Shown here piece by piece: positions 524-16,412 of a DNA stretch of 64,000 bases. The notes below the pieces were generated by a model. The model saw only the letters and a program-made list of their open reading frames with translations, had not been told where the DNA came from and ran no database searches. Each line of letters starts with the position of its first letter. The first letter of the stretch is position 1. The stretch spans positions 31,014 to 95,013 of the forward strand of contig JAHDNZ010000036.1 in NCBI GenBank assembly GCA_018435125.1. The letters are read 5' to 3'. Source of the stretch: Bacillota bacterium. Lineage in GTDB: Bacteria > Bacillota > DTU065. A program made the translations under genes and the position numbers.

Positions 524-542
524 TAAGGTTAGGAGGATAATA

Positions 543-1838: not shown

Positions 1839-2556
1839 ACTTAAGGACATTAAGAAGATTTATCAGTTAGGCCATAACAAGATTGAGGCCTTAGGCGGAG
1901 TTTCTTTGAAGATCAACCGCGGAGAAATGCTGGCTGTTATGGGTCCTTCCGGCTCCGGAAAATCAACTTTACTCCATATTCTAGGTTGTCTGGATCTCCC
2001 GGAAAGTGGTCAATATTTGCTTGAAGATACTGATATTACAAACCTCAGTGATAAAGAACTATCTCGTATTCGCAATGAGCACTTTGGCTTTGTATTTCAG
2101 GCCTATAATCTGCTTCCAGAGCTAAAAGCCTGGGAAAATGTAGCTTTACCGATGGTAATTAACCATGTTAAAAAAGCTGAACGTAAAGAACGTGCTGTAG
2201 CCCTGCTGCATAAAGTTGGCCTAAAAGAGCGTCTGAATCACTTCCCCAACCAGCTCTCCGGCGGTGAACAGCAAAGAGTAGCTATTGCCAGAGCTTTAGC
2301 TAATGATCCGGACCTCATTTTGGGTGATGAACCCACGGGTAACCTCTCTACTGTTCAATCTGACGAAATCTTAGAGATGCTTTGCCAGTTAAATGAAGAA
2401 GGCGTAACTGTAGTTCTGGTTACTCACGATTCAAATGTCGGAGCCAAAGCTAAAAGATTGGTAACACTTCAAGATGGTTTATTAGTACGTGATGTCCCTA
2501 TTGAAAAACGCCACTCTGCAGAGTACATTACAACCTTGTTGCAAGCTGCCAATTAA
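1831..2556 (+). CDS. ABC transporter ATP-binding protein (MacB/LolD-type ATPase)
   Basis: Walker [13 protein letters not shown] signature [15 protein letters not shown], Walker [13 protein letters not shown]-loop THD. GGAGG RBS 8 nt upstream. 8-nt overlap with the HlyD stop. Confidence 0.9.
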
Positions 2557-2582
2557 AACAACTACTAACGGAGGTTTGGCTT

Positions 2583-3659
2583 ATGAAAAAAGCTTATCAG
2601 CTAGTATCTTTAATCTTCACTGTTGTCTTTCTTTTCTCGGCGATTGCCTTTTCGGAGGTAAAGCCTCTTTCCCTTTCAGAGTTTACTCAGCTGGTATTAA
2701 ATAATAGCCCTGAATTGAAAAAGACTAAGATCACCTTGGAAATAAAAGAGATTGACTATACCAAAGCAAAATATCAATCCCATAACCTAGCCTTAAAAAC
2801 TCTTAATGAAAAAGAAACTACTCTCTCTTTGGCTAAAGAAACAGTTGCTTCTACTAAAACACAGGTTATCCTAGATGCTAGTGAACAGCTCCTAAGTTTT
2901 TTGGATGCTAAAGCTAATTTACTGGAAAAAGAATTGCTCCTTGTAAAAAGTCAAAGAGATCTTACCTTATTCGAGTTTAGATTTGAAAAAGGTTTAATTT
3001 CAAAATCTGAACTTGAAAGCCATAAAGAACAAGTCAATCAAAACGAACAAGGCAAAAAGCAAGCAGAATACAGTTTAAAACTTCAAGTTATGAAGCTCAA
3101 CCACTTAGCCGGTCTACCTCTAGAAGATGAACTTGAGTTAGATATACCTCTCCTACCCCTACCTAAATTACCTGATAAAGATGAGCTTTACAAGGTTTTA
3201 CTCCAAGGAAATACTGCTCTAAAGCAATTGAAAAGCCAAATGGATGAAGCATCTCTGGCTTTAGAACTGCTTCATCTCCAACATGAAGCCGCCTTGACCA
3301 TAAGAGAAAAAGAGCTCCAACTAGAGGAATTGCAGCTTGATTTTAAAACTAAAGAAAGTGAAATTCTCTTTTTAGCTGAACAAGAATATGCTAACCTTTT
3401 GGAACAACTAAGAAGAACCGAATCCTTTCTAAAAGAAATAACCGCTTCCCTCTCTAAAGTAACAGAAGTTACAGAGCAGTATAAGTTAGGTCTAATTGCC
3501 CAAAATGAGCTGGAAGAAGCAAAATCCCAGGTTAAACTAACAGAATTAAAGGCTCAAAAAGGGGTTTTTGCCCTTACCATTGCACTTGGACATTTAGGGC
3601 TCCTTCCTGAAAGCTCTTCTTTAGATAATTTTTCCCTAGCAGGTGGGCCTAATGACTAA
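2583..3659 (+). CDS. TolC-family outer membrane efflux protein (short)
   Basis: Signal peptide (MKKAYQLVSLIFTVVFLFSAIAFS). Extensive coiled-coil/alpha-helical repeat character typical of outer membrane efflux proteins. C-terminal ALTIALGHLGLL resembles the TolC repeat ending. GGAGG RBS. Confidence 0.55.
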   Translation: MKKAYQLVSLIFTVVFLFSAIAFSEVKPLSLSEFTQLVLNNSPELKKTKITLEIKEIDYTKAKYQSHNLALKTLNEKETTLSLAKETVASTKTQVILDASEQLLSFLDAKANLLEKELLLVKSQRDLTLFEFRFEKGLISKSELESHKEQVNQNEQGKKQAEYSLKLQVMKLNHLAGLPLEDELELDIPLLPLPKLPDKDELYKVLLQGNTALKQLKSQMDEASLALELLHLQHEAALTIREKELQLEELQLDFKTKESEILFLAEQEYANLLEQLRRTESFLKEITASLSKVTEVTEQYKLGLIAQNELEEAKSQVKLTELKAQKGVFALTIALGHLGLLPESSSLDNFSLAGGPND

Positions 3660-4923
3660 ATTAAAACCCCAATCAATTCTTAGCTTTACAATAGTTGTTT
3701 TAATTTGTTTTTTGTTATTTCCAGGTTCCAAAATCCTCGCTCTTACCTTTCCCGAAGCATTTAACCTGGCCAAAAGTAATTCTAAGGGGCAGCTTAGTCA
3801 ACTTGAAACCGAAATAGCTCGACTCTCTCAAGCTCCAACTTCATTTATAGGTAAACTGTTAGCCACTACTGAGATTAACCTAAAAGCAGATACCTCGGGC
3901 AGTAAAGATAGTACTAACCTAAGTTTATCCGCCTTAAGCCAGGCCGATAATTTAACCCTGGCTTCAATCACCTATAACCCTCTGACTTCCGGGATTTCTT
4001 TTGCTCTATCCATACAACTCTATCCCCTAAAAACCAACGCCTCCTTAGCCAAACAAAAGCTTTCCCCAGATGAACTGGAAATAAAAATCCACACAGCCAG
4101 ATTGTTTTTTGCGGTATTTATTGGCCGCCTTGAAGTACCTTTAATAGAAAAAGACTGTCAGCTAAAAGAAGAGCATTTATCCTTACAGAAAGAAAAATTT
4201 TCTTTAGGTTTAATCTCTTTTGCGGAGGTAAAAAATGCCGCTAAGAATTCGAGTACTCTGCAAACGGAACTGAAATTAGCTAGAGAAAAACTAGTCAAAG
4301 ATGAAAATGCTTTAAAAAAACTGCTCGGGCTGTCTAACTTAAATGATCTTGACTTACAATTAGAACAGAATTGGCCACATATAGAGCAACTAGAGATTAA
4401 TCCTGAGCTTATAGCGGCCTTAGATCTACACCTTTTACAAGCCCAATCCGAATTAAGCCAGCTGGAAAAACAAAAAAAACCGCAAGTTTTTGCCAGCTTA
4501 AATCTCAATCATTTACCAAAAAACCAAAATTTTTTAACTCAGATTAGTTTTAGTCACAATCTTTATAAACCTCAACATACAAAACAGATAGCTCTTGCTA
4601 AACTAGAAGTTACAAAGCAAGAAATTCTTCTTAACGAAAAAAAAGAGGCTTTTTATGAGGAGGTTAAGGAAGCCCTAAACAGTTATAAAAAGGCTCAAGA
4701 GACCTGGCAAAATGCCGCATCTTCCCTTGCAGAAACCACTGAACTACTCGATTTAGCCAATACAGGTGCTTCTTTGGGTATCATATCTGAAGGAGAAATT
4801 CAAGAAATCGCTCTCGAATATGAGTGGGCTAAGGTTAAGGTAAGTAAAACTGCCTTAGATTGTCTACTTAGTTACTTTAATCTGCAAAAATATTCTGCTT
4901 CTCTTCCAGAGCTTAGCCTGTAA
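3652..4923 (+). CDS. TolC-family outer membrane efflux protein (second tandem copy)
   Basis: ATG at 3652 with AGGTGG just upstream. The track's GTG at 3643 sits inside that RBS. Signal peptide, helical repeat composition. Overlaps the previous gene's end, so the two are translationally coupled. Confidence 0.5.
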   Translation: MTKLKPQSILSFTIVVLICFLLFPGSKILALTFPEAFNLAKSNSKGQLSQLETEIARLSQAPTSFIGKLLATTEINLKADTSGSKDSTNLSLSALSQADNLTLASITYNPLTSGISFALSIQLYPLKTNASLAKQKLSPDELEIKIHTARLFFAVFIGRLEVPLIEKDCQLKEEHLSLQKEKFSLGLISFAEVKNAAKNSSTLQTELKLAREKLVKDENALKKLLGLSNLNDLDLQLEQNWPHIEQLEINPELIAALDLHLLQAQSELSQLEKQKKPQVFASLNLNHLPKNQNFLTQISFSHNLYKPQHTKQIALAKLEVTKQEILLNEKKEAFYEEVKEALNSYKKAQETWQNAASSLAETTELLDLANTGASLGIISEGEIQEIALEYEWAKVKVSKTALDCLLSYFNLQKYSASLPELSL

Positions 4924-5135: not shown

Positions 5136-6872
5136 ATGCCAAGAACTTTACAGCGAGTATTTCTACTCCTTTTATTACTGCTCTCATTTAGCGTTCTTAC
5201 CTTTGCAGATTTTATGCCCACTAGGATTAAGGAACTAAGCTTAGAAATAAGCAGTCTGGAAAAATCAATGGAAACAGCAAAGTTAGAAATGCGACGCTTA
5301 AACTACGATTTTCTTGAAGAAAAAATAAACCTTTTGCAACTAAACTTAGAAAAGGCTACCTTACTTGCTAAAAACAACCCTGATAGCCAAGAAGCCATCC
5401 AATTATTAGCAGACATCACTTTTATGCTAAAAGAAATCTCACCTTTTTTGTATGAGTCTTTACCAGTTGAAACCAGAGGGATTTGGCTTGACAATGCAAC
5501 TGTTGATAGTTTTTTTACTAGAGAAGATATAAGCAATTACCTGGATAAATTAAAAGCAATTAATGTTAATATAATCTTTCCCGATGTATATGGAAAAGGA
5601 TCAGCCATCTACCCTAGCGATGTAGTCCCTCAAAACTGGCGTTTTAAAACCATGTACAATGGCAAAGATATTCTTAAGGACCTAATTACCGAAGCACATA
5701 AAAGGAATATTGAAGTGCATCCACTGGTTAGGGTTTTTGCTCTGCATAATGATCCCGAACATTTTTTGGCAAGCCATATAGATTGGCTAGATAAAACCAA
5801 AGCAAATAACTATACCCTAGCCAATGGATTTTATTGGCTTTCACCGGTACATCCTGGGGTAAGGGAATATCTAATTGCTATGTTGGTTGAGCTGGCTAAT
5901 AATTATGATATCGATGGTGTCCATTTAGACTATATTCGCTTTGATTCAGATTATGGCTACAACGAATATACTCGCAATCTCTATAAAAAGTTATTTGGAT
6001 TAGATCCCCTAGATTTTAAAACTCCGAAACAAGAAGAAGATTTCATTATTTTCAAAACCCAATTCATTAATAGATTTGTGGAACGTAGTTTTAAGGAATT
6101 AAAAGCCATTAAACCGTCTTTAATAATATCGGCTGCTGCTTGCTCTCCGTACGCCTGGTATAAGTTAGAAAAGGGCCAGGACTGGTTAAGTTGGATGCAA
6201 AATAGAACTGTCCATTTTTGTACGCCTATGTCTTACCGCAAGACTGCCACCGAATATCTAGCTGTAGTAAATAGTGATCTAAACTCCGTGGCCCAATCAG
6301 GTTATCTCTTCACCGGATTAGGGGTTTATCTTTTTAACGATACCGTTTTACTAGAACAGATAGCCGCTGGTAGAAAAGCTGCCCTGACCGGGCAGATGAT
6401 TTTTTCAACTACCAACATGAAACTTTCACACTTTGATGTCTTACAAAAGGGTCCCTGGAGTAAACCCTCCATGCCAACATACCGTGACCCTATGGAAGCA
6501 GCTTATCAAATTTTAATCGACTTATGTCAAAGAATTATTGAGTTTAAACCAGTCCTTGGTAACTATTCTTTACAACTTGAAAAGTATATTTCTACCATTG
6601 AAAAACTAGCTAAGCAAGTTAAGGATTTAGAACTTAAACCCTGGGATACAAGAGATCTGAGGGAAGAATCGCCAATGGATGTAACCCAACTAGAACCCAT
6701 AATAAAGGCCATTGAAAGTTTTATTTTACAGCTTAAGCGTGAGAGTAAGAATGAAAACCTTATTCCGGTTATAACGGCTGAAAGAATAATTACCGATTTA
6801 AGTTGGGTAAATAGTCTACTCCTACCACTTCTTTATACCAGTAAACCCTACAAATTTATAGCTACAAAGTAG
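5136..6872 (+). CDS. Secreted glycoside-hydrolase-like family 10 (GHL10, YngK-like) protein
   Basis: AAAGGAG RBS. N-terminal signal/TM segment. Central region (IFPDVYGKGSAIYPSD...GVHLDYIRF) resembles the family-10-like glycosyl hydrolase domain of Bacillus YngK-type lipoproteins. Confidence 0.5.
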   Translation: MPRTLQRVFLLLLLLLSFSVLTFADFMPTRIKELSLEISSLEKSMETAKLEMRRLNYDFLEEKINLLQLNLEKATLLAKNNPDSQEAIQLLADITFMLKEISPFLYESLPVETRGIWLDNATVDSFFTREDISNYLDKLKAINVNIIFPDVYGKGSAIYPSDVVPQNWRFKTMYNGKDILKDLITEAHKRNIEVHPLVRVFALHNDPEHFLASHIDWLDKTKANNYTLANGFYWLSPVHPGVREYLIAMLVELANNYDIDGVHLDYIRFDSDYGYNEYTRNLYKKLFGLDPLDFKTPKQEEDFIIFKTQFINRFVERSFKELKAIKPSLIISAAACSPYAWYKLEKGQDWLSWMQNRTVHFCTPMSYRKTATEYLAVVNSDLNSVAQSGYLFTGLGVYLFNDTVLLEQIAAGRKAALTGQMIFSTTNMKLSHFDVLQKGPWSKPSMPTYRDPMEAAYQILIDLCQRIIEFKPVLGNYSLQLEKYISTIEKLAKQVKDLELKPWDTRDLREESPMDVTQLEPIIKAIESFILQLKRESKNENLIPVITAERIITDLSWVNSLLLPLLYTSKPYKFIATK

Positions 6873-6941
6873 ATAACAACCTAAAACTAATCCCTTCCTT
6901 AAGTTTGTGCGTTTTGCTAGGCAATTGCTTAACAAATAGCT

Positions 6942-6970
6942 TTGACAAGAGCCCTAGGCTCAGGTATAAT
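6942..6970 (+). promoter_or_regulatory. Consensus sigma-A promoter for tRNA-Pro
   Basis: TTGACA (6942-6947), 17-nt spacer, TATAAT (6965-6970). Mature tRNA 5' end is at 6981. Confidence 0.75.
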
Positions 6971-6980
6971 TATTTTGTTT

Positions 6981-7057
6981 CGGAGTGTGGCTCAGTTTGG
7001 TAGAGCGCTGCGTTCGGGACGCAGAGGCCCGGGGTTCAAATCCCCGCACTCCGACCA
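6981..7057 (+). tRNA. tRNA-Pro (anticodon CGG)
   Basis: Cloverleaf by eye. Acceptor CGGAGTG/CACTCCG, D-arm GCTC..GAGC, anticodon stem CTGCG/CGCAG with loop TTCGGGA (CGG, G37), T-arm CGGGG TTCAAAT CCCCG, encoded CCA. Confidence 0.9.
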
Positions 7058-7072
7058 TATAAAACCATTGAT

Positions 7073-7113
7073 AGCCCTCACTTTGTACAAATTTTAAAGT
7101 GAGGGCTTTTTGT
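7073..7113 (+). terminator. Rho-independent terminator after tRNA-Pro
   Basis: AGCCCTCACTTT ... AAAGTGAGGGCT hairpin followed by TTTTT. Confidence 0.8.
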
Positions 7114-7136
7114 ACACAAACAGAAAAATGTAGCCA

Positions 7137-7602
7137 TCATGTAGCCAACGGCATTCTAGGGCAGGAAGTCTCAATTACTCGATTAAAATACTTATACCAA
7201 AGACTAAGAAGCCACCGGCCATTTAACGAGTTGTTTCTTTGCATGGCTACCTTAACTATGACTCCGCCAAACAACCTCAAAAGGTTTCTCTTCCTTCGGT
7301 TCTTCTTTTGGCAATGCCGTTTAGCTCTAGCTGAAGGTGTTAGACCAAACTCGAAAGCGATTACTCGCATTTGATCGAAGAGCTGTTTTTTCTTAGTTAG
7401 GAGCGGATTTGGTATACTGTTGGTCTCTCCAGCCTTGTTGGCTTATTCAATTACAAATCCTTCTTTGCCGATGATCTCTGTAAATTCTTGGTAGCTGACA
7501 TAAACGTCTAAGTAGGTTGCTAGCATATCCACATAAACATTGGACATTAAGTCAACTTCCTGTAGCTCCTTCGCAATTCGGTTGAATGCTTTCTGTCTAA
7601 CA
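7137..7602 (-). pseudogene. Phage terminase small subunit (P27-family-like) remnant, N-terminally truncated and interrupted
   Basis: Minus-strand frame 7443-7602 reads ...KAFNRIAKELQEVDLMSNVYVDMLATYLDVYVSYQEFTEIIGKEGFVIE then a stop. The downstream ORF 7137-7370 begins with EFGLTPSARAK, which is the characteristic C-terminal motif of P27 terminase small subunits. The two pieces are broken by a stop or frame change. Confidence 0.4.
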
Positions 7603-7633
7603 ATCAACCCTTCTTTAATCTTATAGAATTTAG

Positions 7634-8150
7634 CTACTGTTTTAATCTGGAATACTGGTCATAGATCATGTGTGTCTCCATGTGGTCTTTGCAGTATTGG
7701 TACTCCGAAAACCGATTACATCCTATAGCTTTACCGGGTCTTAAAGCTTGTTTAAGCACATTGAAGAAGGAGTAGACCAACGTCTCTATCTTGCCGAGTA
7801 TATTCAGAATCTGACCATACATCCCATTCATCATATCTTCTCTTAATTAACCCTTCCAAAACTTTACCATTACTCCTTACCCATGATAAAAAATTCTTTA
7901 GTTCGACAGCAGCTGTCTTACCAGACTTTATAATCTTCCACATGTCCGACCTATCTATAATGTTTCCTATTCCAATATTAAATACAAAACTAACAATGGC
8001 GTCAAACTCCTGATGTTTTAGATCTACATTAATGGTCTCAAACAAGTCATTAGGTTCCTTTACTCTACTTTGAAGATCCTTCGTGAATAAATCCTTAGCA
8101 GCTTCAGGTGTAATACCGCGGGCGGAAACCCACTCACGCTGTATAACCAC
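7634..8150 (-). pseudogene. Phage-type lysozyme (GH24/Phage_lysozyme family) gene disrupted by a frameshift
   Basis: ORF 7752-8150 contains the QEFDAIVSFVFNIGIGN and GLIKRR motifs of phage lysozymes. The C-terminal continuation lies in another frame (7634-7834). No functional full-length frame. Confidence 0.55.
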
Positions 8151-8321
8151 TGTTTGTCCGACTATATTAATCGCTTGCAGGTGCGGAGATGGTCGCCGTG
8201 CGTGTAGTGGAGGAAACTGATAAGAAACAATGGAATGTAATTATGTATTTTCAAGTCAATACTACACACCATGTAAAGCAAAAAACTTTCCGTTGTCGAT
8301 TATCGTGAAAGCGAGGAAACT

Positions 8322-8909
8322 ATGAAAAAGCCTTTTGTTATCAGCATTTCTGGCATATCTGGCAGCGGTAAAACCACAATCGCTAACGCGCTGAAGAAAC
8401 GGGTTGCAAATACTGAAGTCATTAACTTCGATAATATTTCGGGAGATTTGCCCGGCCAAGATTACTGCGAATGGTCGGAATCAGGAGCAGACTGCAACGA
8501 ATGGATACTTACTCCAATAATTGATGAAATAGAGCGCTTATGCTCCGATCCGCTTGAATATATTGTTCTTGATTATCCCTTTGGGACAGCTCACCGTAAG
8601 GTTGGAGCATATGTAGATATTTCTGTTTGGATAGATATACCGCTTGATATATCACTTGCACGACGTATACTGCGTGACTTTACACGCTGCTCAAAAATAC
8701 GCCATCCACTAAAAGGACATGTAGCGGAAGAAGTATCATCATATCTTGATTATTACCTTGCTCGACATAGGGACACATATTTACGCCATATTGAAACAAT
8801 TAGACCATTTGTCGATTTAATTGTTGACGGTACAAATACGCCAGAAGAAATTACAGATGAGATATTGTCCTATATCAATACCCGTAACCATTTACGATGC
8901 CCTCATTGA
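8322..8909 (+). CDS. P-loop NTPase / small-molecule (nucleoside-type) kinase family protein
   Basis: N-terminal Walker A ISGISGSGKTT. About 195 aa. Noticeably higher GC than flanks. First gene of a tightly packed 4-gene cassette. Confidence 0.5.
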   Translation: MKKPFVISISGISGSGKTTIANALKKRVANTEVINFDNISGDLPGQDYCEWSESGADCNEWILTPIIDEIERLCSDPLEYIVLDYPFGTAHRKVGAYVDISVWIDIPLDISLARRILRDFTRCSKIRHPLKGHVAEEVSSYLDYYLARHRDTYLRHIETIRPFVDLIVDGTNTPEEITDEILSYINTRNHLRCPH

Positions 8910-9480
8910 TGAAATCAACGACCCCGTCTGCGACCCGGTACTGCTAAGAGAATATATGGACAAATGGGACGGCGAAGTATTCATTGAAGTACTGCAGTTT
9001 TCGCCGGACAAGACAGTTTTAGAAGTAGGCATTGGAACAGGGCGGCTTGCGGTGCGCATTTGCGGTAAATGCGAACGTTTCACCGGCATTGATATATCAC
9101 CGAAAACCATTGAGAGAGCAAAAGAAAACCTCCGGGGTTTTAATAACGTTTCTCTTATTTGCGGCAACTTTCTTACTTATCAGTTTAATGAGAGATTTGA
9201 TATAATCTACTCATCTCTCACTTTTATGCACATTCAGAATAAGCGAGCGGCAATTCAGAGAGCAGCAATCCTTCTTAATCCCGGTGGTCGGTTTGTATTG
9301 TCTATTGATAAAAACCAGCAGATGGAAATTGATTATGCAAGTGGCTATGGTAGTCGGAAAATTGTTGTTTATCCCGACACACCGGAGGAAATCACCGCTT
9401 TAATTACCGAAGCTGGATTAAATATCGAGAAACAATTTGAAACCGAGTTTGCTTTGATTATCACTGCAAGGAAAGGATGA
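8857..9480 (+). CDS. Class I SAM-dependent methyltransferase
   Basis: Motif I VLEVGIGTGRLA plus post-I acidic residue. Start is ambiguous: TTG 8821, ATG 8857 or ATG 8956. The 5' end overlaps the kinase gene in another frame. Confidence 0.55.
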   Translation: MRYCPISIPVTIYDALIDEINDPVCDPVLLREYMDKWDGEVFIEVLQFSPDKTVLEVGIGTGRLAVRICGKCERFTGIDISPKTIERAKENLRGFNNVSLICGNFLTYQFNERFDIIYSSLTFMHIQNKRAAIQRAAILLNPGGRFVLSIDKNQQMEIDYASGYGSRKIVVYPDTPEEITALITEAGLNIEKQFETEFALIITARKG

Positions 9481-10079
9481 TAAAAACCATGCATCTTGAA
9501 ATCAAGCCTCTAACCCCCGAACTTGCTGCTGATTTCTTTGACTTCTTCGAAAATCGAGCGTTCACAGATAATTCCCCATATCGGTGTTATTGCCAGTTCT
9601 ATCAAATGACCAAGGAACAGGAGAAAGCAGCGTTCGACAAAGTAGACGGGCCTGATATCGGTCGCGTGGCTCGAAAAGTAGCCGAGCGACAGATCGATTC
9701 AGGCATCCTGCAGGGATATCTTGCGTTTGCTGACGGCGTGACTATCGGCTGGTGCAACGCGAACGACAAAGCGAACTTTCCCATAGAATCGTGTACCGGT
9801 GAGCGTTTTTACGCGCCAGCCAAAAAGCGAGAAAAGGCCGTGGTGTGTTTCGAAATTGCCCCGGAATTTCGCGGGAAGGGTGTCGCCACCGCTCTTTTGC
9901 TGCGGGTCGTTGCCGACGCAAAAGCCGAAGGCTATATCGCCATCGAGGGTTTCCCCGTTGTGCGCAACAAACGATATGAATGGGATAACGCCGGCCCCAT
10001 TCGGTTATACGAAAAGGTCGGGTTTATAAAAGTAGCGGAAACGGAAAAAAATGCGGTCATGCGAAAGGAATTAAGATAA
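9477..10079 (+). CDS. GNAT family N-acetyltransferase
   Basis: Acetyl-CoA binding motif VCFEIAPEFRGKGVATALL. ATGA overlap with the methyltransferase stop. Higher-GC cassette. Confidence 0.7.
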   Translation: MIKTMHLEIKPLTPELAADFFDFFENRAFTDNSPYRCYCQFYQMTKEQEKAAFDKVDGPDIGRVARKVAERQIDSGILQGYLAFADGVTIGWCNANDKANFPIESCTGERFYAPAKKREKAVVCFEIAPEFRGKGVATALLLRVVADAKAEGYIAIEGFPVVRNKRYEWDNAGPIRLYEKVGFIKVAETEKNAVMRKELR

Positions 10080-10528
10080 TGAAATACGAATTTGATGCAG
10101 AAATCAAACGGCTTGAGGGTAAAATCCAGTGGAGCGTCTTTTATTTTCCCGAATCTGCTGTAGACTGTTTTGGCTCAAAGGGTAACATTCCTGTCAAAAT
10201 CATGGTGGATGGACACCCCTTTGAACACACGCTCTTGAGTTCTCGAAACGGACATTATCTCGTTTACAACGAATTTATTCGCCGCGCTGTCGGCAAAGAA
10301 ATGGGTGACAGTGTACACGTTACTTTGGAGAAAGACGAACAACCGAGAATTTTTACGGTTCCGGCTTATCTCGAAACGATTCTCAGGGATGGAGGCGTTT
10401 TGGAGACCTTTCTGAAACAGCCGGATTATTTGAAGCGCGAGCAAATCAACAAAATCGAATTGGCTAAGAAAGAAGAAACCAAGGCGAATCGGATTAAAAA
10501 GCTAATTACAGAGTTGGGAGATATCTAA
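10079..10528 (+). CDS. DUF1905 / YdeI-like domain protein
   Basis: TAATG overlap with the GNAT gene. Sequence pattern (KIQWSVFYFP...GNIPVKIMVDGHPFEHTLL) resembles the DUF1905 beta-barrel domain often fused or adjacent to YdeI/OmdA. Confidence 0.45.
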   Translation: MKYEFDAEIKRLEGKIQWSVFYFPESAVDCFGSKGNIPVKIMVDGHPFEHTLLSSRNGHYLVYNEFIRRAVGKEMGDSVHVTLEKDEQPRIFTVPAYLETILRDGGVLETFLKQPDYLKREQINKIELAKKEETKANRIKKLITELGDI

Positions 10529-10613
10529 AATGATTTGTCAAAACTGTAAGAAAAACATCCGCTAAATAGAGATATATGTCCCGATTGTCGGCTATCCTGT
10601 AAAACCAATCCCT

Positions 10614-10960
10614 GTGCCACCTGGTGGTAAAATCAACTTCGGCAACTTCGACTGGTTCGTGCCGTATATACAGGACGATAAGACGCTCATTATCACTGAG
10701 AAGGTAATCGAAAAGAGGATGTATCACAGTGAAGAAGCTTCCATCACATGGGAAACGTACGCTATGCGGAAATATCTGAACAGCGAGTTTTATAATTCGT
10801 TCAACGAAGCCGACTGCTAACAAGATATTTTTGCTGAGTATTAGTGAGATCCTCAAATATTATGGTGACAGCGGACAGATAAAAGCATGGTATATGTACC
10901 CGAATTGCGAATGATGCAAGGATAAGTTTTTGCCGTGGATTGATGACCAATAACATCAAC
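10614..10960 (+). pseudogene. DUF6273-like domain gene fragment, frameshifted
   Basis: Frame 10614-10820 reads ...ITWETYAMRKYLNSEFYNSFNEADC. The continuation ...KIFLLSISEILKYYGDSGQIKAWYMYPNCE lies in a different frame. No start context and no intact ORF. Confidence 0.4.
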
Positions 10961-10985
10961 CGCCACGCTGTGGAAGTAAAAAGAA

Positions 10986-11025
10986 CCCCTGCTAGAAGTG
11001 CAGGGGTATTTGTTATTTATTTATT
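10986..11025. terminator. Bidirectional Rho-independent terminator
   Basis: CCCCTGC tagaagt GCAGGGG hairpin (10986-11006) with a T-rich tract on the plus side and TTCTTTTT on the minus side. Lies between convergent units. Confidence 0.7.
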
Positions 11026-11767
11026 CCGTGCTTTCAAAACGCTCATTCATAATTAAATTTCTACAGTAAGTATATTCATCATCCCCGCAACCTTGCAAAA
11101 TTATCACATCTTCGCTATATGACTTTACACTCCAAAAAATCCCTTGATCTTTTATTGAACAAGATCCGGTATGAAAATTAGAAGAATCGACATCAGGTAT
11201 AATTACATCTTCACCCAGAAAGGAATAGAACCCACAATATGGTTCACTATTGTCTTGATAGTTTCTAATTCGAAAATATTGTCGTCCTCCGAATAGTCCT
11301 TTATCACAAGAAACAGTAACAGATGCTCCGCAGTAAATGTTTTCATCCTTGTTTCGAAGTAGAAAAACAAACTCCAGCTTATTGGTATTCATTGTAAAGA
11401 ACATCTCATCTTCAGATACCGTTGGCATATATCTATCAGGAGCTGCCAAACAGATTATGTCTTTTCTTAAATACGCTGATAAATCAACAGTCTGAAAACT
11501 TCGATTAAGTCTTTGTTTTAGCTTGAAATTATTACCAGAAGCTTCTCCAAGTGAATTAATAAATGCATATCCTGTAGCTGCTTCACTTTGATAGCGTTCA
11601 CAAATGCCGATCAGTTTATGTTCGGTACTATCTCCAATATATAATGCTGCTCCGAGAATATCATTGTCCAAATTATATAGTTCAAAAACAAATTGACGAG
11701 TTATTACTAGCTCTCTATTAGAAGATGAATACACCCCATATGGTATTGTGTGATTCATTTTTCTCAC
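11021..11767 (-). CDS. Hypothetical cytoplasmic Cys-rich protein (about 248 aa), no recognisable domain
   Basis: AGGAGGTGA RBS 5 nt upstream of ATG. No signal peptide. Several Cys residues in the C-terminal half. Island context. Confidence 0.5.
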   Translation of the reverse strand: MRKMNHTIPYGVYSSSNRELVITRQFVFELYNLDNDILGAALYIGDSTEHKLIGICERYQSEAATGYAFINSLGEASGNNFKLKQRLNRSFQTVDLSAYLRKDIICLAAPDRYMPTVSEDEMFFTMNTNKLEFVFLLRNKDENIYCGASVTVSCDKGLFGGRQYFRIRNYQDNSEPYCGFYSFLGEDVIIPDVDSSNFHTGSCSIKDQGIFWSVKSYSEDVIILQGCGDDEYTYCRNLIMNERFESTE

Positions 11768-12251
11768 CTCCTAGCAACAAATATCTAGAAATTTGCTCTT
11801 TACAAACTAAATAGTCTTGGTTTTCCCTTCTTGTCCAGCTTTTTACTTTGCTACAACTAATAGTTATGTTTTTGCACAAGTAATCTTTCCAATATTAGTT
11901 CAATAAAAGATGGTCTTAACAAGTATAAAACAGCATTAAGATAAGCTAACACCTTAGCTAAATTTCCATCAACCTAGTTTAGCTTTTCTACCATCTTCGT
12001 TTAGTAACTGACGTGGATGTTAATTTTCTTAAAATAGAGAACTCTAATGTTTCTTGCCATGAATTAGACAGTTGAGTTCGTCCCCTTGCCTATTTCCTAA
12101 AAACTCAATGTTTCGGTTTGAACAGGTTTAGCTAATTAAGGGTATTCATTTCCATCTTCTTTCTATAAACAACTTTTAGGCAGGAATATACATTCCTTTA
12201 TCTAAAGATCAATATGGTACATTTTTACCAGCAAACAAGGAGTTGAATTCC

Positions 12252-12881
12252 ATGGATATCAGTGGCCTTTTATCTTTGACATATATGTTAGCATATCTAG
12301 AAATCAAAAACCCTCAGAATAAACAGCTAAATAATATGTTTACTTCTTTATCTAAAACTCGGATTGCAGTAGTTGGTGCAATCTCAGGGTTTTTGGTGCC
12401 ACTGGCTATATGTCTGCCCGCTTTATTGTATTTAGGAGCTGGTTTTTTATATACAATTATGGCTGAAACTCTAATCCCTGGAATAACAGGATTTCAAGGC
12501 GAACCCTTTACAAACATATTTACGCAAAACCTTAGTTTTTTTAGCCAGATACTGGTTTTAATTCTAAAATATACAGCTCTGCCATCAATATTAATGGGTT
12601 TATGTGATATTACTTTGCGTCACAGATTTTTTAATAACCCCCAAAATAATGTATGGCCGTGGCTTTACAAACATTGTGCAGCCCCTATTTCTGCTTTTTT
12701 TATTATTATATCTATTTTAACATGGTCCTCTCGGAAAGCGATGTTTGGCATAGCCGGCTTGTTAGTTATCAACAGTCTTCCAGCTGTTTTTTTGGGATTA
12801 CTATACCGAGGTATTCTGCTTGCAACACTAGACAAGCAATTACTCATAATAACCAAATTTAAAAACCTTAGGTCTAGTTAG
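12252..12881 (+). CDS. Hypothetical polytopic membrane protein
   Basis: AAGGAG 10 nt upstream of ATG 12252. The TTG at 12243 in the track is too close to the RBS. Five to six predicted hydrophobic helices. Confidence 0.5.
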   Translation: MDISGLLSLTYMLAYLEIKNPQNKQLNNMFTSLSKTRIAVVGAISGFLVPLAICLPALLYLGAGFLYTIMAETLIPGITGFQGEPFTNIFTQNLSFFSQILVLILKYTALPSILMGLCDITLRHRFFNNPQNNVWPWLYKHCAAPISAFFIIISILTWSSRKAMFGIAGLLVINSLPAVFLGLLYRGILLATLDKQLLIITKFKNLRSS

Positions 12882-13186
12882 AACTCAGTTAACCATTTTC
12901 ACTAATATGCATACCAACTAATACTAAACTGAGAGCTTCTCCTTATAAGAGTTGGTAACTAAATTGTTATCGTCTTGATTGTGTGTAAGTTTTCAAATTA
13001 TCTGACTTAATCTTTGGACTATGTTCCTAGCACGTCTTTATTCATTGTTTAACTGAAAAAAGAAGTGTAATCTTCTATCATTTGACCTTCGGTGATTGTT
13101 GCGATTGCTGCTTTCTTTCTTAAGATTGATGAGACTGCAAATATCGGTAAGACCATGTCCAAAATGTCTTTAAAAAAGTAGCTTCC

Positions 13187-13225
13187 CCCTATTACAGGGA
13201 AAAGCTACTTTATTAATATTTAAAG
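13187..13225. terminator. Rho-independent terminator (serves the small minus-strand peptide gene; bidirectional shape)
   Basis: AAAAAAGTAGCTTCCCC ctattaca GGGAAAAGCTACTTTATTAATATTT. Confidence 0.6.
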
Positions 13226-13242
13226 AGGGATTTTACCCTGCT

Positions 13243-13344
13243 TTACCAACCGCATCCGCCGCCGTTCATAGTCATAATGACCAAAAGAATCAGTATTAAA
13301 AACAAGCCTGCTGCTTCTTGGCCATTTGAAGCCTTATCTACCAT
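13243..13344 (-). CDS. Small hydrophobic peptide, 33 aa (MVDKASNGQEAAGLFLILILLVIMTMNGGGCGW), YjcZ-like
   Basis: Below the ORF-track cutoff, found by eye. GGGAGG RBS 8 nt upstream of ATG 13344. The terminator hairpin lies 20 nt past the stop. Architecture is a hydrophobic core with a Gly/Cys-rich tail, as in YjcZ-family sporulation peptides. Confidence 0.45.
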   Translation of the reverse strand: MVDKASNGQEAAGLFLILILLVIMTMNGGGCGW

Positions 13345-13597
13345 AGCTGATCCTCCCTTCTAGAAAGGTTACTATAACTTATGCTGCGTTTTCAAAATCG
13401 CCATGAACTATTTAACTCATCTTATTGTTTTTTTAAAACCTGCCATCGAGTTCTAGAAGAGATTACCGGATTTCTAAAACTGAAGTTAGTACCTTTAATG
13501 TTCTGCTGATTTTCTCAAGACCTTTAACCTTGAAAAAACACAACTTTTGCAGGTCAAATTGTTTTTATGTCCAAATCCATCTACAGGAGGGAGCCAA

Positions 13598-14422
13598 ATG
13601 AAGCTAGCAGAGATAGTTGTGGAAAATGTAAGGAGTTTTAAAAAACTATTAAAAATTGACTTTACCGATCACTACACCGGTTTACCTAATGATCGTTTGG
13701 TTATTGTAGGTACTAATGCCTCTGGTAAAACTACACTTTTAGAAATAACTATTTCACTCTTAAAAGCTTTTTATCATGAGCAAGATTCTCTCTATAAGGA
13801 ACTTAGCTCAGCCGGAGTAGCTACCAAGGTGGTTTTTCTAGATCAAAACGATAACCGGCTTGCTCTTGAACTTAAAGATGGCAGGCTTTCACTAGAAGGT
13901 AAGAGTGAGCTTTTACCCTTTTATTTGTATTTCCCGGCGGAGCGCTATTTTTCTGAGCCAGCTCAATCAGAGCCAATAAAAATAAACCCTTGGGGCTATG
14001 AGTATAAAAACGGAGAAGAATACTTTACTAACTATTTAGATAATAGCTTTTCTGAGTTAGCCACCCGTTTTTTTTCAGGACGTATACTGGCTAAAACAGA
14101 TGATCAGTACACACTATCGGCTTCTGCCAACGATCCCACCCCGATACCATTAAAAAGACTACCTTCTGGCGAAAAGCAAGCCTTAATTTTGCTTACGATC
14201 ATTGCTAAGCATCTTAAAAGGAGATCGCTGGTGATGATTGATGAATTTGAACTTAGCCTTCATCCTACAGCTCAAAGAAAGCTTTACTATCTTCTCAGTG
14301 CTTATCTTAAAGAGAGAGATTCGCAACTAATTGTGGCCACTCATTCTCTAGAAATTGTCCGTGCATCCCTGGAAACAGAAGTTTTTAGTCTAGACGAAAT
14401 CTTAGGGGGGCTAAAGACATGA
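13598..14422 (+). CDS. AAA_21/ABC-type ATPase (AriA/AbiLi-like), short form, about 274 aa
   Basis: GGAGGG RBS 6 nt before ATG 13598. RecF/SMC-like N-terminal strand MKLAEIVVENVRSFKK, Walker A GTNASGKTT, signature-like LPSGEKQAL, Walker B/H-loop VMIDEFELSLHP (the DEPE..LHP hallmark of AAA_21). Confidence 0.65.
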   Translation: MKLAEIVVENVRSFKKLLKIDFTDHYTGLPNDRLVIVGTNASGKTTLLEITISLLKAFYHEQDSLYKELSSAGVATKVVFLDQNDNRLALELKDGRLSLEGKSELLPFYLYFPAERYFSEPAQSEPIKINPWGYEYKNGEEYFTNYLDNSFSELATRFFSGRILAKTDDQYTLSASANDPTPIPLKRLPSGEKQALILLTIIAKHLKRRSLVMIDEFELSLHPTAQRKLYYLLSAYLKERDSQLIVATHSLEIVRASLETEVFSLDEILGGLKT

Positions 14423-15273
14423 GCTACTTATCATTAGATCAACTGCTCCTTAGAATCCGCTCTGGGAAGGGACTAGCTATAGTCATTGAAGGCATTAAAA
14501 ACGGTGATGATGAGTGGGTATACTCCCAGTGGTTTGGTAATTTAGCTCATTTAGTAACTTTTTACCCCCAGGATGGTTATAGCCGTGTCTATGATGCGGT
14601 TGAAAATCTCAGAAATAAAAGCCCTCACAAACTTATTGCCGGCATTATCGATCGTGACTTCGCAACTGAAATTGAAGTTAAAGCACAGTTTGAAGCAGAT
14701 TATGCGCAACATGTCTATCGCACTAAACGTTATACCTTAGAAAATTATCTTTTAGAACCGGAAGGTTGGCTAGAGATAGCCTCTCTTTTTTGGCGTCATA
14801 AACATCCTGTGGGTTTTCGAACTTTGGAAGAATGCAGCCAAACTATTGAGTTGGTTTTTAAATCATTTTTACCTGCTGCAGCTTATAATTGGCTTGTCTG
14901 GGATTTAGGGCAAAAATACGGGCCCAAATATTATCTGAATTATAAAGACACTCCTAATCTAGATCCGGAAAAACTTTATTTTGATCTTCGTATCTACTGC
15001 CAAAGAGAAGGTCTGCCTAGTCCTGATGAATATGAATTAAGACTTAATCTCCTTCGAAGGAAAAAAGAGCTCTGGCATCAAAAGGTTAGTGGCAAAATGG
15101 TTTTTAATTATCTGATCGAAAACATTCCGGTTCCTAGAAGCCGCCCGGATAAACATCTTTTTATAAACTATTATGTATCCAGAACGGAAGCTCCAAAAGA
15201 GCTAAACCGCCTGGTTAATTTTCTGATCACTAAATATCTTAAGGAAGCATCTCTTGCCAAGAGTGCAATCTAG
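14419..15273 (+). CDS. DUF4435/Toprim-like protein (AriB/OLD-C-terminal-like), putative nuclease partner
   Basis: ATGA overlap with the ATPase stop. Acidic motifs VIEGIKNGDDEWVY and GIIDRDF are compatible with the Toprim E...DxD pattern of DUF4435. About 284 aa, matching the typical size of that family. Confidence 0.45.
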   Translation: MSYLSLDQLLLRIRSGKGLAIVIEGIKNGDDEWVYSQWFGNLAHLVTFYPQDGYSRVYDAVENLRNKSPHKLIAGIIDRDFATEIEVKAQFEADYAQHVYRTKRYTLENYLLEPEGWLEIASLFWRHKHPVGFRTLEECSQTIELVFKSFLPAAAYNWLVWDLGQKYGPKYYLNYKDTPNLDPEKLYFDLRIYCQREGLPSPDEYELRLNLLRRKKELWHQKVSGKMVFNYLIENIPVPRSRPDKHLFINYYVSRTEAPKELNRLVNFLITKYLKEASLAKSAI

Positions 15274-16411
15274 AAGGTTCGCCATCTAAAAATACACTGT
15301 AAAGGTTTTGATTTGCCATTTGCCAGGTTACTATATCATCATCTAGCTGCAGTTCGCCTTTTTCGGCAATCGAATAGGTTTTTCCTGACAACCTTCGCAA
15401 AAATCGCTCTAGATCATTTCTTTCCAGTGTTAATTTGCTAGACTCTCTTGCCCCAACAACCTTGATCATTTCCGAGATTAGCTCAGAGAGAGGACGTTTG
15501 GTAACCGCAACAATCTCTGCCAGTAAAAGACCAAGCCAAAGCCCATCTCCTACACCTAAATGGGGTCTATAGATAATCTCGTCGCCTACAAAAAAATCTG
15601 CCTCTTTTTCTACATCAAGACCTGCTCTTTCTGCCACACGATCAAAAAAGCGTGACCTATCCCAGGCTCTGGCTACACTTTTTAAACTTCCCTGTTCCTT
15701 AAGATAGCGAGCTATTAGAGCTGCTACAACTTCAACCTTTAGAACCTCCCCGGTGTCAGCGACAAATTCAGCCTTTGTACCTAAACTATTAAGTTTTAGG
15801 CCTAAATCAGCTCGTAAACGCAAGACTGATTCTCCTACTGTATTTATAGATATATCTCCATCTGAGCGAACTCGCCATAGACCTTTAAAAGTTATTATCT
15901 GTGAGAGTAAACTAAACAATTTAGCATCTTCCAGTCCACCCAAAGCTAAAAAAATCGACCCTAGCTTATCAGCTGCAGTTTCTCGACGCAGATGCCTAAT
16001 ATACTCTCTTTGTACATCTAAACGCATAGTTTTGCCACGTTTTCTTCTTTCCAAGCGTTTGATTGAAAAAGTGCCTTCAACATAACTTCCGGTTGTAGTT
16101 AAAAAAGTATAACTATTATCTTCTACATAACATGCTGAAGCACTAAGTCTTCTTGCCATAAGAGAGAGTTCTGGCAACAAACATTCTCCGGTTTGGGCTA
16201 CATCAAAACCGTTTGCCAGCAAAAGATCTACAGCTTGCAAAGCATAAACAGGAACCCCAATACTCTTGCTAGGGTCTTTATAACCGACAAGAGCTAATCC
16301 ACTTTGGGTTTTTTCTTTAAGGTAATCGGCCAAGTGTCCCCTTACCATAGGTGTATCATCTACAAGCTTTCCACTTTTAACCAAGTAGCCGTCTTTTACA
16401 GCCTCGTTCAC
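15239..16411 (-). CDS. Hypothetical protein with weak alpha-D-phosphohexomutase-like features (divergent active-site loops)
   Basis: GTG start with an AGGAGG RBS. Its start region overlaps the stop of the upstream CotS-like gene (TAATGTG). RLSASACYVE resembles the TASHNP loop with HNP lost. RSDGDISI resembles the DGDGDR metal loop. The 3' end overlaps the convergent gene by 35 nt. Confidence 0.3.
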   Translation of the reverse strand: MNEAVKDGYLVKSGKLVDDTPMVRGHLADYLKEKTQSGLALVGYKDPSKSIGVPVYALQAVDLLLANGFDVAQTGECLLPELSLMARRLSASACYVEDNSYTFLTTTGSYVEGTFSIKRLERRKRGKTMRLDVQREYIRHLRRETAADKLGSIFLALGGLEDAKLFSLLSQIITFKGLWRVRSDGDISINTVGESVLRLRADLGLKLNSLGTKAEFVADTGEVLKVEVVAALIARYLKEQGSLKSVARAWDRSRFFDRVAERAGLDVEKEADFFVGDEIIYRPHLGVGDGLWLGLLLAEIVAVTKRPLSELISEMIKVVGARESSKLTLERNDLERFLRRLSGKTYSIAEKGELQLDDDIVTWQMANQNLYSVFLDGEPSRLHSWQEMLP

Positions 16412-16412
16412 A

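Follow-up and report, generated by a model that had tools for sequence, protein, structure and literature searches.

The window (the whole stretch of 64,000 nucleotides that was analysed) carries, to the right of a tRNA-Pro gene, a short array of co-directional and tightly coupled genes which directly adjoins a phage lysozyme remnant at the truncated end of the latter. The features of this region are collected in Table 1. In fact, the open reading frames that the initial annotation had listed, namely 8322-8909, 8821 or 8857 to 9480, 9477-10079 and 10079-10528, all on the + strand, are found as described, and its domain calls (P-loop kinase, which is Udk-like, class I SAM methyltransferase, GNAT acetyltransferase and DUF1905/OmdA protein) are borne out by Pfam profiles. 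What has to be revised is the count of four genes: there are three, with the kinase and the methyltransferase being one fusion gene, and the array extends beyond the interval 8322-10528 assigned to it to a fifth co-directional unit, a DUF6273 pseudogene.

Table 1. Features of the array and its surroundings, in window coordinates.
Feature	Position	Strand	Basis
tRNA-Pro(CGG), left landmark of the variable island	6981..7057	+	ARAGORN; Rfam tRNA, 68.6 bits
Phage small terminase subunit (terS) remnant, pieces 7443-7607 and 7137-7370	7137..7607	-	Pfam, PHROG, blastn
Phage lysozyme/endolysin remnant, N-terminally truncated	7752..8150	-	Pfam Phage_lysozyme, 5e-20; PHROG endolysin
Fused kinase-methyltransferase gene, broken by +1 T (intact length 385 aa)	8322..9480	+	ORF reconstruction, sister alleles
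Kinase half, 195-aa ORF ending at an out-of-frame TGA, Udk/NRK-like P-loop kinase	8322..8909	+	Pfam PRK, fold
Frameshift site, TTT here against TT in the intact allele	8890..8892	+	CCATTTACGATG vs CCATTACGATG
Methyltransferase half, class I SAM module opening with the conserved (H)YDALIDE(N/I)NDPV	8893..9480	+	Pfam, fold
GNAT acetyltransferase, 196 aa, extendable to ATG 9477	9489..10079	+	Pfam Acetyltransf_1, homologue lengths
DUF1905 + OmdA (YdeI-like) protein, 149 aa	10079..10528	+	Pfam
DUF6273 pseudogene, last array unit, zinc-ribbon N-terminus	10530..10950	+	tblastn with the intact L015 gene; Pfam DUF6273, 2e-8
Bidirectional terminator-like hairpin closing both the + strand array and orf248, which converges on it	10985..11007	.	

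The block sits in an eroded prophage remnant beside tRNA-Pro. The terminase remnant is recognized by Pfam Terminase_4 (3e-10, on a 54-aa piece) and by PHROG 83, terminase small subunit (2e-9), window positions 7320-7465 match the terS gene of Bacillus phage phIS3501 in blastn, and a 1-nt indel at 7400, also within this remnant, differs between strains. As for the lysozyme, the Phage_lysozyme match covers profile positions 33-125 of 125 only. No integrase ORF occurs in 6900-16500, and the 3' end of tRNA-Pro is not repeated there, the repeat search having given only short chance matches; this fits an eroded element. Moreover, an Rfam scan of 6800-13600 returned the tRNA only, and a promoter scan gave results not better than those on shuffled sequences.

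The kinase and methyltransferase frames were originally described as overlapping by 50-90 nt in different frames, which is exact as far as the letters go (53 nt from ATG 8857, 89 nt from TTG 8821). This apparent overlap is due to a 1-nt insertion at 8890-8892. The extra T falls between the codons of His190 and Tyr191, that is at the domain junction of the fusion, and breaks the frame there, so that in the window the kinase-methyltransferase linker, YINTRNH followed by YDALIDE, is not contained in one ORF. After the extra T the kinase ORF runs into a stop 15 nt further on, with a junk tail of five residues (LRCPH), and gene callers restart an out-of-frame methyltransferase ORF at ATG 8857, which gives the shorter of the two apparent overlaps. 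Removal of one T yields a continuous ORF of 385 aa, and the protein reconstructed in this way is identical to P0202 except for one residue (I/V in motif I) and to P0203 except for two. Three contigs from three different sequencing runs (L012, L013 and L014) are 99.7% identical to window positions 7107-11420 and read CCATTACGATG, with the intact ORF placed between the same lysozyme remnant and the GNAT gene, i.e. at the same locus. In-frame kinase-methyltransferase fusions are also present in other species (L068, L076, P0397, P0398, P0093, P0134 and P0026), for example P0397, which has 391 aa and aligns from end to end at 60% identity, and the fusions of other species share the linker ...YINT(R/L)NHYDALIDENNDP. 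In all the other fusions as well, whatever the N-terminal partner, the homology of the methyltransferase module begins at fusion residues 185-190.

The TTT allele itself is found in six assemblies from different samples (one from JGI, two from ENA, one NCBI MAG and two from Logan, with SRR13787008, SRR2420280, ERZ724030 and JGI 3300002837 among the samples), two of which carry distinguishing SNPs, and it stands on two haplotypes. About 8 of 15 assemblies of the locus have it, and about half of the public assemblies have the intact allele; SRR13155360, SRR10520223 and SRR25844766 are samples with TT. The frameshift is a recent and real polymorphism within one uncultured species. Of the three readings offered at the outset for the overlap, the frameshifted former fusion gene is therefore the right one, as the intact alleles in sister strains reveal; the real overlap, including a true ancestral overlap of two genes, is rejected since the sister-strain contigs carry one intact ORF across both domains. 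Phase variation at the site was likewise considered and rejected because the T run comprises just 2-3 nt. The situation is that of frameshift-split genes and young pseudogenes in decaying prophage and tRNA-linked islands, where a single-base indel splits an ORF, the neighbours are truncated or stopped and the state is polymorphic between strains. Nothing essential differs here, except that the split lies precisely at the domain boundary and thereby mimics two ordinary genes. The TT-to-TTT event is an ordinary young mutation, and nothing found at the locus points to a new mechanism or system.

For the analysis of the two halves, a joint MAFFT alignment of fusions with standalone kinases and methyltransferases misplaced the methyltransferases on the kinase part, and it was discarded in favour of a separate model for each domain. 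The kinase half exceeds the gathering threshold of Pfam PF00485, PRK/uridine kinase (36.1 bits against a cutoff of 22, E 7e-9), and keeps 8 of 8 family-invariant residues, with G14, G16 and K17 of the P-loop (Walker A) being invariant. Its AF2 model has a pLDDT of 91.5 and finds uridine kinase 3asz, UCK2 1udw and NRK1 2qsy as the best Foldseek matches, while the top PDB match by sequence is 9y3v, named 'uridine kinase P10'. The proposal of a uridine-kinase-like enzyme is thus backed by sequence and by predicted fold, whereas the APH or CPT identity suggested along with it is not: neither APH (PF01636) nor chloramphenicol phosphotransferase is among the Pfam matches at E <= 0.01, and the fold search returned nucleoside and nucleotide kinases only, with no ePK-like fold.

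With the uridine(-cytidine)/NRK family the kinase shares the Walker A sequence GISGSGKTT, the motif D-x-PLD-x-x-L-ARR-x-x-RD and a similar topology (Foldseek E 5e-9, TM about 0.65), but at only 14-20% identity, and here it is joined to a methyltransferase. It scores below cutoff in the models of true uridine kinase equivalogs (TIGR00235, 45 bits against 220; NF004018, 51 against 180). Unlike Udk it has a conserved motif of its own, C-E-W-x-E-x-G-A-D-x-N-E-W, and it presumably lacks the ERGR lid motif and the nucleoside-binding motifs of Udk. The best-scoring family is NF006085 (PRK08233, 'hypothetical protein' kinases of Firmicutes), in which residues 2-190 align with model positions 3-182 at E 3e-49, but the 167.4 bits stay under the curated cutoff of 198. 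Most relatives are standalone proteins of 185-210 aa, the standalone form being seen in 72 of 80. Given the complete domain, the mostly standalone relatives and a good SD of its own before ATG 8322 (-10.6 kcal/mol), the kinase half would still be made.

The methyltransferase half matches Pfam Methyltransf_25/31/11 (PF13649/PF08241/PF13847) at about 1e-18, with 65-67 bits against cutoffs of 21-27, and 2736 homologues of the module were found. All of the 23 invariant columns are kept, among them E44, G48 and G50 of SAM motif I; V47 of the same motif, at a position that at least 90% of the family conserve, is Ile in the window. The AF2 model (pLDDT 87) has as its nearest folds NodS 3ofk, NmbA 9ri2 (a bacillithiol N-methyltransferase), CcbJ 4hgy, XrdM 8rdl, NNMT 2iip and YunM 7wzf. 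Accordingly the module looks like a small-molecule class I methyltransferase, with a Rossmann-type SAM fold, a small cap and LE-x-G-x-GTGRL as its motif I (E about 1e-13 and TM ~0.7 in Foldseek), yet identity to these enzymes is 17-26% and no curated family reaches threshold. The family has its own N-terminal cap, HYDALIDENNDPVHDP...YMDKWDG, and in fusions it invariably forms the C-terminal part. A His precedes Tyr1 of YDALIDE in at least 90% of the family's members, and in the restarted frame this His is replaced by Ile. Furthermore no SD is found before the restart codons at 8821, 8857 and 8955, whose duplex energies are +0.3, -1.9 and -3.1 kcal/mol, compared with a mean of -9.6 kcal/mol for 25 host genes. 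Since none of the restart codons has an SD in an organism that relies on it, and since a near-invariant His is lost, the methyltransferase half is probably silent or poorly translated.

Altogether we consider, with a probability of about 0.85, that 8322-9480 is a single two-domain gene with a recent frameshift polymorphism, of which the kinase is still produced and the methyltransferase little translated, in an array of independent modules. The gene joins an N-terminal P-loop kinase of the uridine-kinase/nicotinamide-riboside-kinase type to a C-terminal class I SAM-dependent small-molecule methyltransferase; the gain of one T (TT to TTT, 8890-8892) exactly between the domains shifts the frame, after which the kinase half would still be made and the methyltransferase half little or not at all.

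An unlikely alternative is that the gene underwent a functional fission and that both products work, with the kinase ending at 8909 and a termination-reinitiation without SD at ATG 8857 giving a methyltransferase of 207 aa, the usual standalone size. Work on phage MS2 and E. coli has shown that ribosomes can reinitiate near a stop codon without an SD; the insertion falls exactly at the junction, while the chance of a random hit in the linker of ~12 nt of a 1158-nt gene is about 1%; the standalone form is the commonest architecture of both families; and the allele is frequent, occurs on two haplotypes and keeps every invariant methyltransferase residue. However, the kinase stop comes 50 nt after ATG 8857, and the restart codons are without SD whereas nearly all host genes have a strong one. 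The change from His to Ile in the restarted protein also speaks against fission, as do the V-to-I replacement in SAM motif I that the window haplotype has since gained, and the decay of the neighbouring DUF6273 and phage genes. Still, the place of the frameshift at the domain boundary and the commonness of the allele would equally suit a fission, tolerated or selected, that leaves two working products.

Downstream of the split gene, the GNAT protein (PF00583, 35 bits against a cutoff of 20.7, E 2e-8) has 1201 homologues, annotated as GNAT, at 70-86% identity, nearly all of which are 195-200 aa long and cover the 196-aa form by 99-100%. The genes were said to overlap by 4 nt or more, at an ATGA at 9477 and a TAATG at 10079, and both strings do exist. 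Nevertheless the TAATG (10077-10081) makes an overlap of 1 nt, and the GNAT gene most likely starts at 9489, as called by five of six gene callers, which replaces the ATGA overlap by a spacer of 8 nt. In the next protein both domains are over threshold (DUF1905, 56.4 bits against 24, 3e-15; OmdA, 34.7 bits against 25.6, 2e-8), and PDB 2d9r is matched at 1e-5. Its relatives at 86-92% identity come from Eubacteriales and Oscillospiraceae MAGs, and in cluster look-ups for 18 window proteins the Eubacteriales and Oscillospiraceae DUF1905 homologues were the only named members. The DUF6273 unit is damaged by in-frame stops, a change of frame and a 3' truncation: tblastn recovers aa 1-95 (frame 3) and aa 116-165 (frame 1), each stretch interrupted by a stop, and the remainder is absent.

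The composition of the block, which had been described as higher in GC than its surroundings, is not uniform. Against a baseline of 0.310 +/- 0.037 from 42 window genes, GC3 is 0.306 for the kinase (z -0.1), 0.408 for the methyltransferase (z 2.7), 0.467 for the DUF1905 gene (z 4.3) and 0.533 for the GNAT gene (z 6.1). The description thus holds for the GNAT and DUF1905 genes and mildly for the methyltransferase half, and a foreign origin is supported to the same extent, while the kinase half is host-like, and the block is therefore composite.

Elsewhere, the same modules recur in other orders and with other neighbours. Among 80 kinase loci from metagenomes none has the GNAT or the DUF1905 gene of the window adjacent to the kinase, and one has a GNAT homologue of 37% identity at a distance of 3.5 kb; partial synteny, in the order GNAT-DUF1905-DUF6273, is found in the Oscillospiraceae MAG L015. 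The fusion partners in relatives include Nudix, Ham1/ITPase, ASCH, GNAT, APH and GrpB, and kinase-GNAT, methyltransferase-GNAT and methyltransferase-APH fusions all exist. The genes of the array belong, as modules shuffled independently of one another, to mosaic arrays of accessory genes in anaerobic Firmicutes, where they are often fused together. When the Spo0A-like protein of the window was searched against the genome contigs, no match closer than 34% identity was obtained.

In relatives, the modules belong to runs of 20-30 small accessory genes in one orientation, such as GNATs, glyoxalases, kinases and DUFs, whose order is shuffled between genomes as in integron cassette arrays. Genes of the WYL/PafC-like, MerR and LexA-like regulator types stand beside such runs. 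In contrast to integrons, neighbouring genes are -17 to +59 nt apart, in most cases 0-4 nt, and the SD of the following gene lies inside the preceding one, which leaves no room for attC sites; the genes in these runs look translationally coupled and operon-like. Moreover, attC-like structured repeats are absent from 6900-16500 and an integron integrase from both the window island and the fetched arrays, and an integron was rejected for these reasons, as the genes abut or overlap without attC repeats or IntI. A bolder and decidedly doubtful idea is that the window holds a stray piece of a type of accessory-gene array not described before, in which 20-30 coupled modules would be reshuffled gene-precisely without attC and repeatedly fused or split at conserved linkers, with the TT-to-TTT change as a snapshot of fusion and fission, and with the whole possibly serving as a damage- or xenobiotic-induced house-cleaning toolkit for nucleosides and small molecules. 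The modules of such arrays comprise Udk-like and AAA_18 kinases, the HYDALIDE-type methyltransferase, GNATs, DUF1905, GrpB, PNPOx, glyoxalase, Nudix and Ham1 proteins and others.

The proposal of a dedicated four-gene cassette is not supported by these data. Such a resistance or metabolite-tailoring operon, acquired horizontally, would have its kinase, methyltransferase, GNAT and DUF1905 proteins act on one compound and move together, and could be read from the tight co-directional coupling, the atypical GC3 of three of the genes, the partial synteny with L015 and the known fusions among such modules. Yet the absence of the GNAT and DUF1905 genes beside the kinase at all 80 loci, the differing orders and neighbourhoods and the host-like GC3 of the kinase half make it very unlikely. 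The initial annotation had also raised the possibility of a plasmid-borne block; blastn of the cassette gave zero matches in PLSDB and, among phage genomes, a match on the terS remnant only. No resistance family reached threshold, and the kinase, the GNAT and the DUF1905 protein had no matches in PADLOC, which made no defence assignment; there the methyltransferase matched mad2 in its SAM core alone (120 of 492 positions).

Turning back to the junction, an assembly error, with a true sequence of TT and an intact gene here, was one of the readings offered at the beginning. Metagenome assemblies can hold indel errors, and the window evidently comes from a MAG or metagenome. Yet this reading has almost no probability left: the identical TTT in six independent assemblies, from different pipelines and samples and on two haplotypes, establishes a real polymorphism and excludes the error, other assemblies of the same species read TT, which means that assemblers can resolve both states, and a T run of 3 nt is not error-prone on Illumina. 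A programmed +1 ribosomal frameshift, which would produce the fusion from two long ORFs in +1 overlap and would have a known architecture as its product, is just as far from credible, because the fusion is read in a single frame, lacking the added base, in sister strains and in other species, which hence have no conserved shift site. By the rules of +1 shifting, the site CAU-UUA-CGA offers no re-pairing option for the P-site tRNA, and it has no upstream SD-like stimulator; for transcriptional slippage, a run of three T is not long enough. For annotation, 8322-9480 should consequently be recorded as one frameshifted kinase-methyltransferase gene, and neither as two overlapping genes nor as an assembly error.

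Judged from the folds, the original view of the cassette as a small-molecule modification set is plausible. More specifically, the enzymes may modify nucleoside-like or other small molecules in detoxification or house-cleaning, without a dedicated pathway, a suggestion drawn from fold similarity at 14-25% identity and from fusion partners that are possibly mere former neighbours in dense arrays. The intact gene resembles the bifunctional AAC(6')-Ie-APH(2'')-Ia in having two small-molecule-modifying domains per polypeptide and an accessory or mobile context, and relatives of the methyltransferase are fused to GNAT or APH; the difference is that the kinase here has a P-loop Udk-like fold, not the APH/ePK fold, and that resistance families are not matched. 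Literature searches on DUF1905, on GrpB/GNAT/glyoxalase cassettes and on 'uridine kinase P10' gave nothing relevant.

With both alleles in public metagenomes, the locus is a clean natural case of a two-domain gene split at its junction, and it could be used as a compact example for weighing gene fission against pseudogenisation. Finally, in anaerobic Firmicutes both the Udk-like kinase and the methyltransferase module of the HYDALIDE type fuse very promiscuously with other domains, and they could merit biochemistry.

The four open reading frames of the block were recovered by ORF calling and Pfam searches with the coordinates, plus-strand orientation and domains given in the initial annotation. 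The overlap that it had noticed between the kinase frame and the class I SAM methyltransferase (MTase) frame is present as well, with 53 nt counted from ATG 8857 and 89 nt from TTG 8821. A frameshifted former fusion gene had been one of its explanations, and this is the one borne out by a one-T repair and by intact sister alleles. In fact every MTase family member opens with the conserved motif HYDALIDENNDPV (2736 matches), which in many members stands directly after another domain, and among the kinase homologues an in-frame continuation into an MTase (protein P0026) or into a GNAT is seen. The junction reads ...YINT(R/C)NHYDA(L/I)I(D/N)E... in the homologous proteins P0093, P0134, P0084 and P0111; in the window the kinase frame reads ...SYINTRNH, and the +1 frame gives YDALIDEINDPV. 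For an in-frame fusion the junction DNA would have to be CCATTACGATG but is CCATTTACGATG, and removal of one T yields an ORF of 385 aa. Two 385-aa proteins, P0202 and P0203, cluster with the window kinase at 90% identity; the repaired ORF differs from them by one and two residues, respectively. The sister-strain contigs encoding them (L012, L013 and L014, from three sequencing runs) are 99.7% identical to the window over the corresponding region (lysozyme remnant to DUF1905, GNAT included), and all three have CCATTACGATG and an intact ORF; the fused kinase-MTase is thus the ancestral state and the window allele a 1-nt insertion.

The insertion lies between His190 and Tyr191, and MTase-module homology starts at fusion residues 185-190 regardless of the N-terminal partner; at this module boundary it therefore leaves both domains physically whole. 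The kinase ORF keeps 8 of the 8 family-invariant residues, has the length typical of standalone relatives (72 of 80 metagenome loci) and a strong Shine-Dalgarno (SD) sequence (-10.6 kcal/mol), and we infer that the kinase would still be made. In the MTase half all 23 invariant residues are retained, but a nearly invariant His is lost; no SD was found at its restart codons (+0.3, -1.9 and -3.1 kcal/mol, host mean -9.6), and the MTase is probably largely silent. A functional fission, in which the MTase is made by SD-independent reinitiation, is a minority possibility, favoured by the insertion falling precisely at the domain junction and by the high frequency of the frameshift allele (by contig counts, about 8 assemblies versus about 7 with the intact gene).

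The alleles make a stepwise series from P0203 (L44, intact, V in motif I) through P0202 (P44, intact) and contig L011 (P44, frameshift) to the window (P44, frameshift, V-to-I in motif I). Programmed frameshifting is ruled out because the relatives encode the protein in a single frame. The assembly error also considered initially is ruled out for practical purposes, since the TTT of the frameshift allele is present in six assemblies differing in sample and pipeline (JGI 3300002837; Logan SRR13787008 and SRR2420280; ENA ERZ724030 and ERZ27283039; NCBI MAG GCA_036807985.1), two of which have distinguishing SNPs. The frameshift is young, polymorphic and real but ordinary, and splits a kinase-MTase fusion gene inside a decaying patch in which accessory genes have been shuffled.

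Features of the block and its surroundings
Feature	Position	Strand	Remark
tRNA-Pro(CGG)	6981-7057		first upstream landmark
Phage small terminase gene	7137-7607		fragments; after tRNA-Pro
Phage lysozyme	7752-8150		N-terminally truncated; after terminase fragments
Kinase ORF	8322-8909	+	Pfam PRK/uridine-kinase family, 36 bits (cutoff 22)
MTase ORF	8821/8857-9480	+	Pfam class I SAM methyltransferase families, about 1e-18
GNAT ORF	9477-10079	+	Pfam GNAT, 2e-8
DUF1905 ORF	10079-10528	+	Pfam DUF1905 plus OmdA
DUF6273 gene	10530-10950	+	dead (stops, frame change, 3' truncation); 1 nt after DUF1905
Bidirectional terminator	10985-11007		after DUF6273 pseudogene
248-aa ORF	11021-11767	-	convergent on array; GC 0.343 (low)
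Segment of 1.15 kb	11958-13109		missing from L012, L013
orf212	12243-12881		inside 1.15-kb segment
AriA/AriB-like pair	13547-15273	+	PARIS-like; two overlapping genes

Neither an integrase nor an att repeat was found around the block; with a tRNA and phage remnants beside it, the block is therefore located in an eroded prophage/tRNA-linked variable region. A second between-strain 1-nt indel, at 7400 inside the terminase remnant (G in the window and contig L008, missing in L012), shows that the phage patch is still decaying. Further downstream, the 248-aa ORF has no match in Pfam, NCBIfam, PHROG or PADLOC, nor does the protein collection searched contain an identical sequence; a 245-aa version is called in other assemblies. 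The flanks of the 1.15-kb segment are 98.6-99.9% identical, and orf212 encodes a hydrophobic protein without family matches. The pair downstream of the block comprises an AriA-like ABC ATPase (PADLOC 8e-24; Pfam AAA_15/AAA_21) and an AriB-like DUF4435 protein (9e-10), both shorter than typical AriA/AriB of the PARIS anti-phage system.

The four genes had been regarded as a tightly packed, compositionally distinct cassette, possibly shared with plasmids and other taxa. Its status as a conserved unit is not upheld: no plasmid match was found, and the window GNAT or DUF1905 stands beside the kinase in 0 of 80 metagenome kinase loci. The composition shift is uneven, with third-position GC (GC3) of 0.306 in the kinase, 0.408 in MTase, 0.467 in DUF1905 and 0.533 in GNAT (42 window genes, 0.310 +/- 0.037). 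TAATG is present at 10077-10081 but overlaps by just 1 nt, and GNAT translation probably does not begin at the ATGA at 9477, ATG 9489 being more likely because the homologues (n = 1201, 70-86% identity) are nearly all 196 aa and most gene callers prefer it. Homology to other contigs runs module by module: it begins at 8892 for MTase, DUF1905 is 80-82% identical in nucleotides to L016-L023, and GNAT 69-73% identical to L016, L017, L020 and L021, there not adjoining DUF1905. GNAT-DUF1905-DUF6273 is common only to L015, an Oscillospiraceae MAG, with a radical-SAM gene inserted precisely between DUF1905 and DUF6273; since GC3 there is about 0.5 in these genes, a higher-GC Clostridia donor would fit for this part.

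Moreover, Eubacteriales and Oscillospiraceae MAG contigs (L151, which is L016 extended, L015, L020-L023) contain runs in which 20-30 small genes abut in the same orientation; they encode GNATs, AAA_18/AAA_33 kinases, MTases, GrpB, PNPOx, glyoxalases, DUF3795, DUF1905, HAD, AP_endonuc_2 and others, and are packed too closely for attC-like sites to fit between them. Beyond the end of one run lie LexA-like, Y-family polymerase and SRAP genes. Modules common to the runs are 67-83% identical in nucleotides and vary in order between genomes, and window 9489-10950 is itself a piece of such a run. Fusions among these accessory modules are common. The HYDALIDENNDPV-type MTase (P0397-P0461 and P0083-P0157, related to window 8893-9480) is always the C-terminal module, with N-terminal partners of at least 100 aa in at least 38 representative clusters (PRK-like kinase, AAA_18/SKI-like kinase, Ham1/ITPase, GNAT, ASCH-GNAT, metallophosphoesterase, APH, DUF2971, DUF3795), and the Udk-like kinase has MTase, GNAT, GrpB or Nudix as C-terminal partner. 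Genes of this set appear to be fused, split and truncated often. Broken modules also occur in the relatives L003-L005 (P0019), P0021 and P0026/L002: one kinase has been cut to 153 aa and lies beside a RelB antitoxin gene, another extends just a few residues into the MTase cap, and in one kinase-MTase fusion the MTase is cut after motif I. This highly modular, uncharacterised enzyme set and the mosaic arrays of anaerobic Firmicutes, as sampled here, are the more interesting by-product.

The AF2 model of the kinase (pLDDT 91.5) has uridine kinase, UCK2 and nicotinamide riboside kinase as its nearest structures (TM about 0.65, 14-20% identity), and the protein lies below the Udk equivalog cutoff and slightly under that of NCBIfam PRK08233; of the families proposed earlier, a uridine-kinase-like one agrees with the fold, APH and CPT being unsupported. 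The MTase model (pLDDT 87) resembles the small-molecule N/O/S-methyltransferases NodS, NmbA, CcbJ, XrdM and NNMT. Along with fusion partners of the nucleotide house-cleaning type (Nudix, Ham1, ASCH), these folds weakly suggest action on nucleoside-like small molecules.

Besides PolA, PriA and RsmB, the window codes for an efflux set and a Spo0A-like response regulator, for which 185,579 species genomes, scanned by pattern, gave no relatives above 34% identity. Because genes for HlyD, an ABC ATPase and two TolC-like outer-membrane efflux proteins accompany this regulator (444-4923 and 17577-18335), the host may be a diderm, sporulation-lineage Firmicute.
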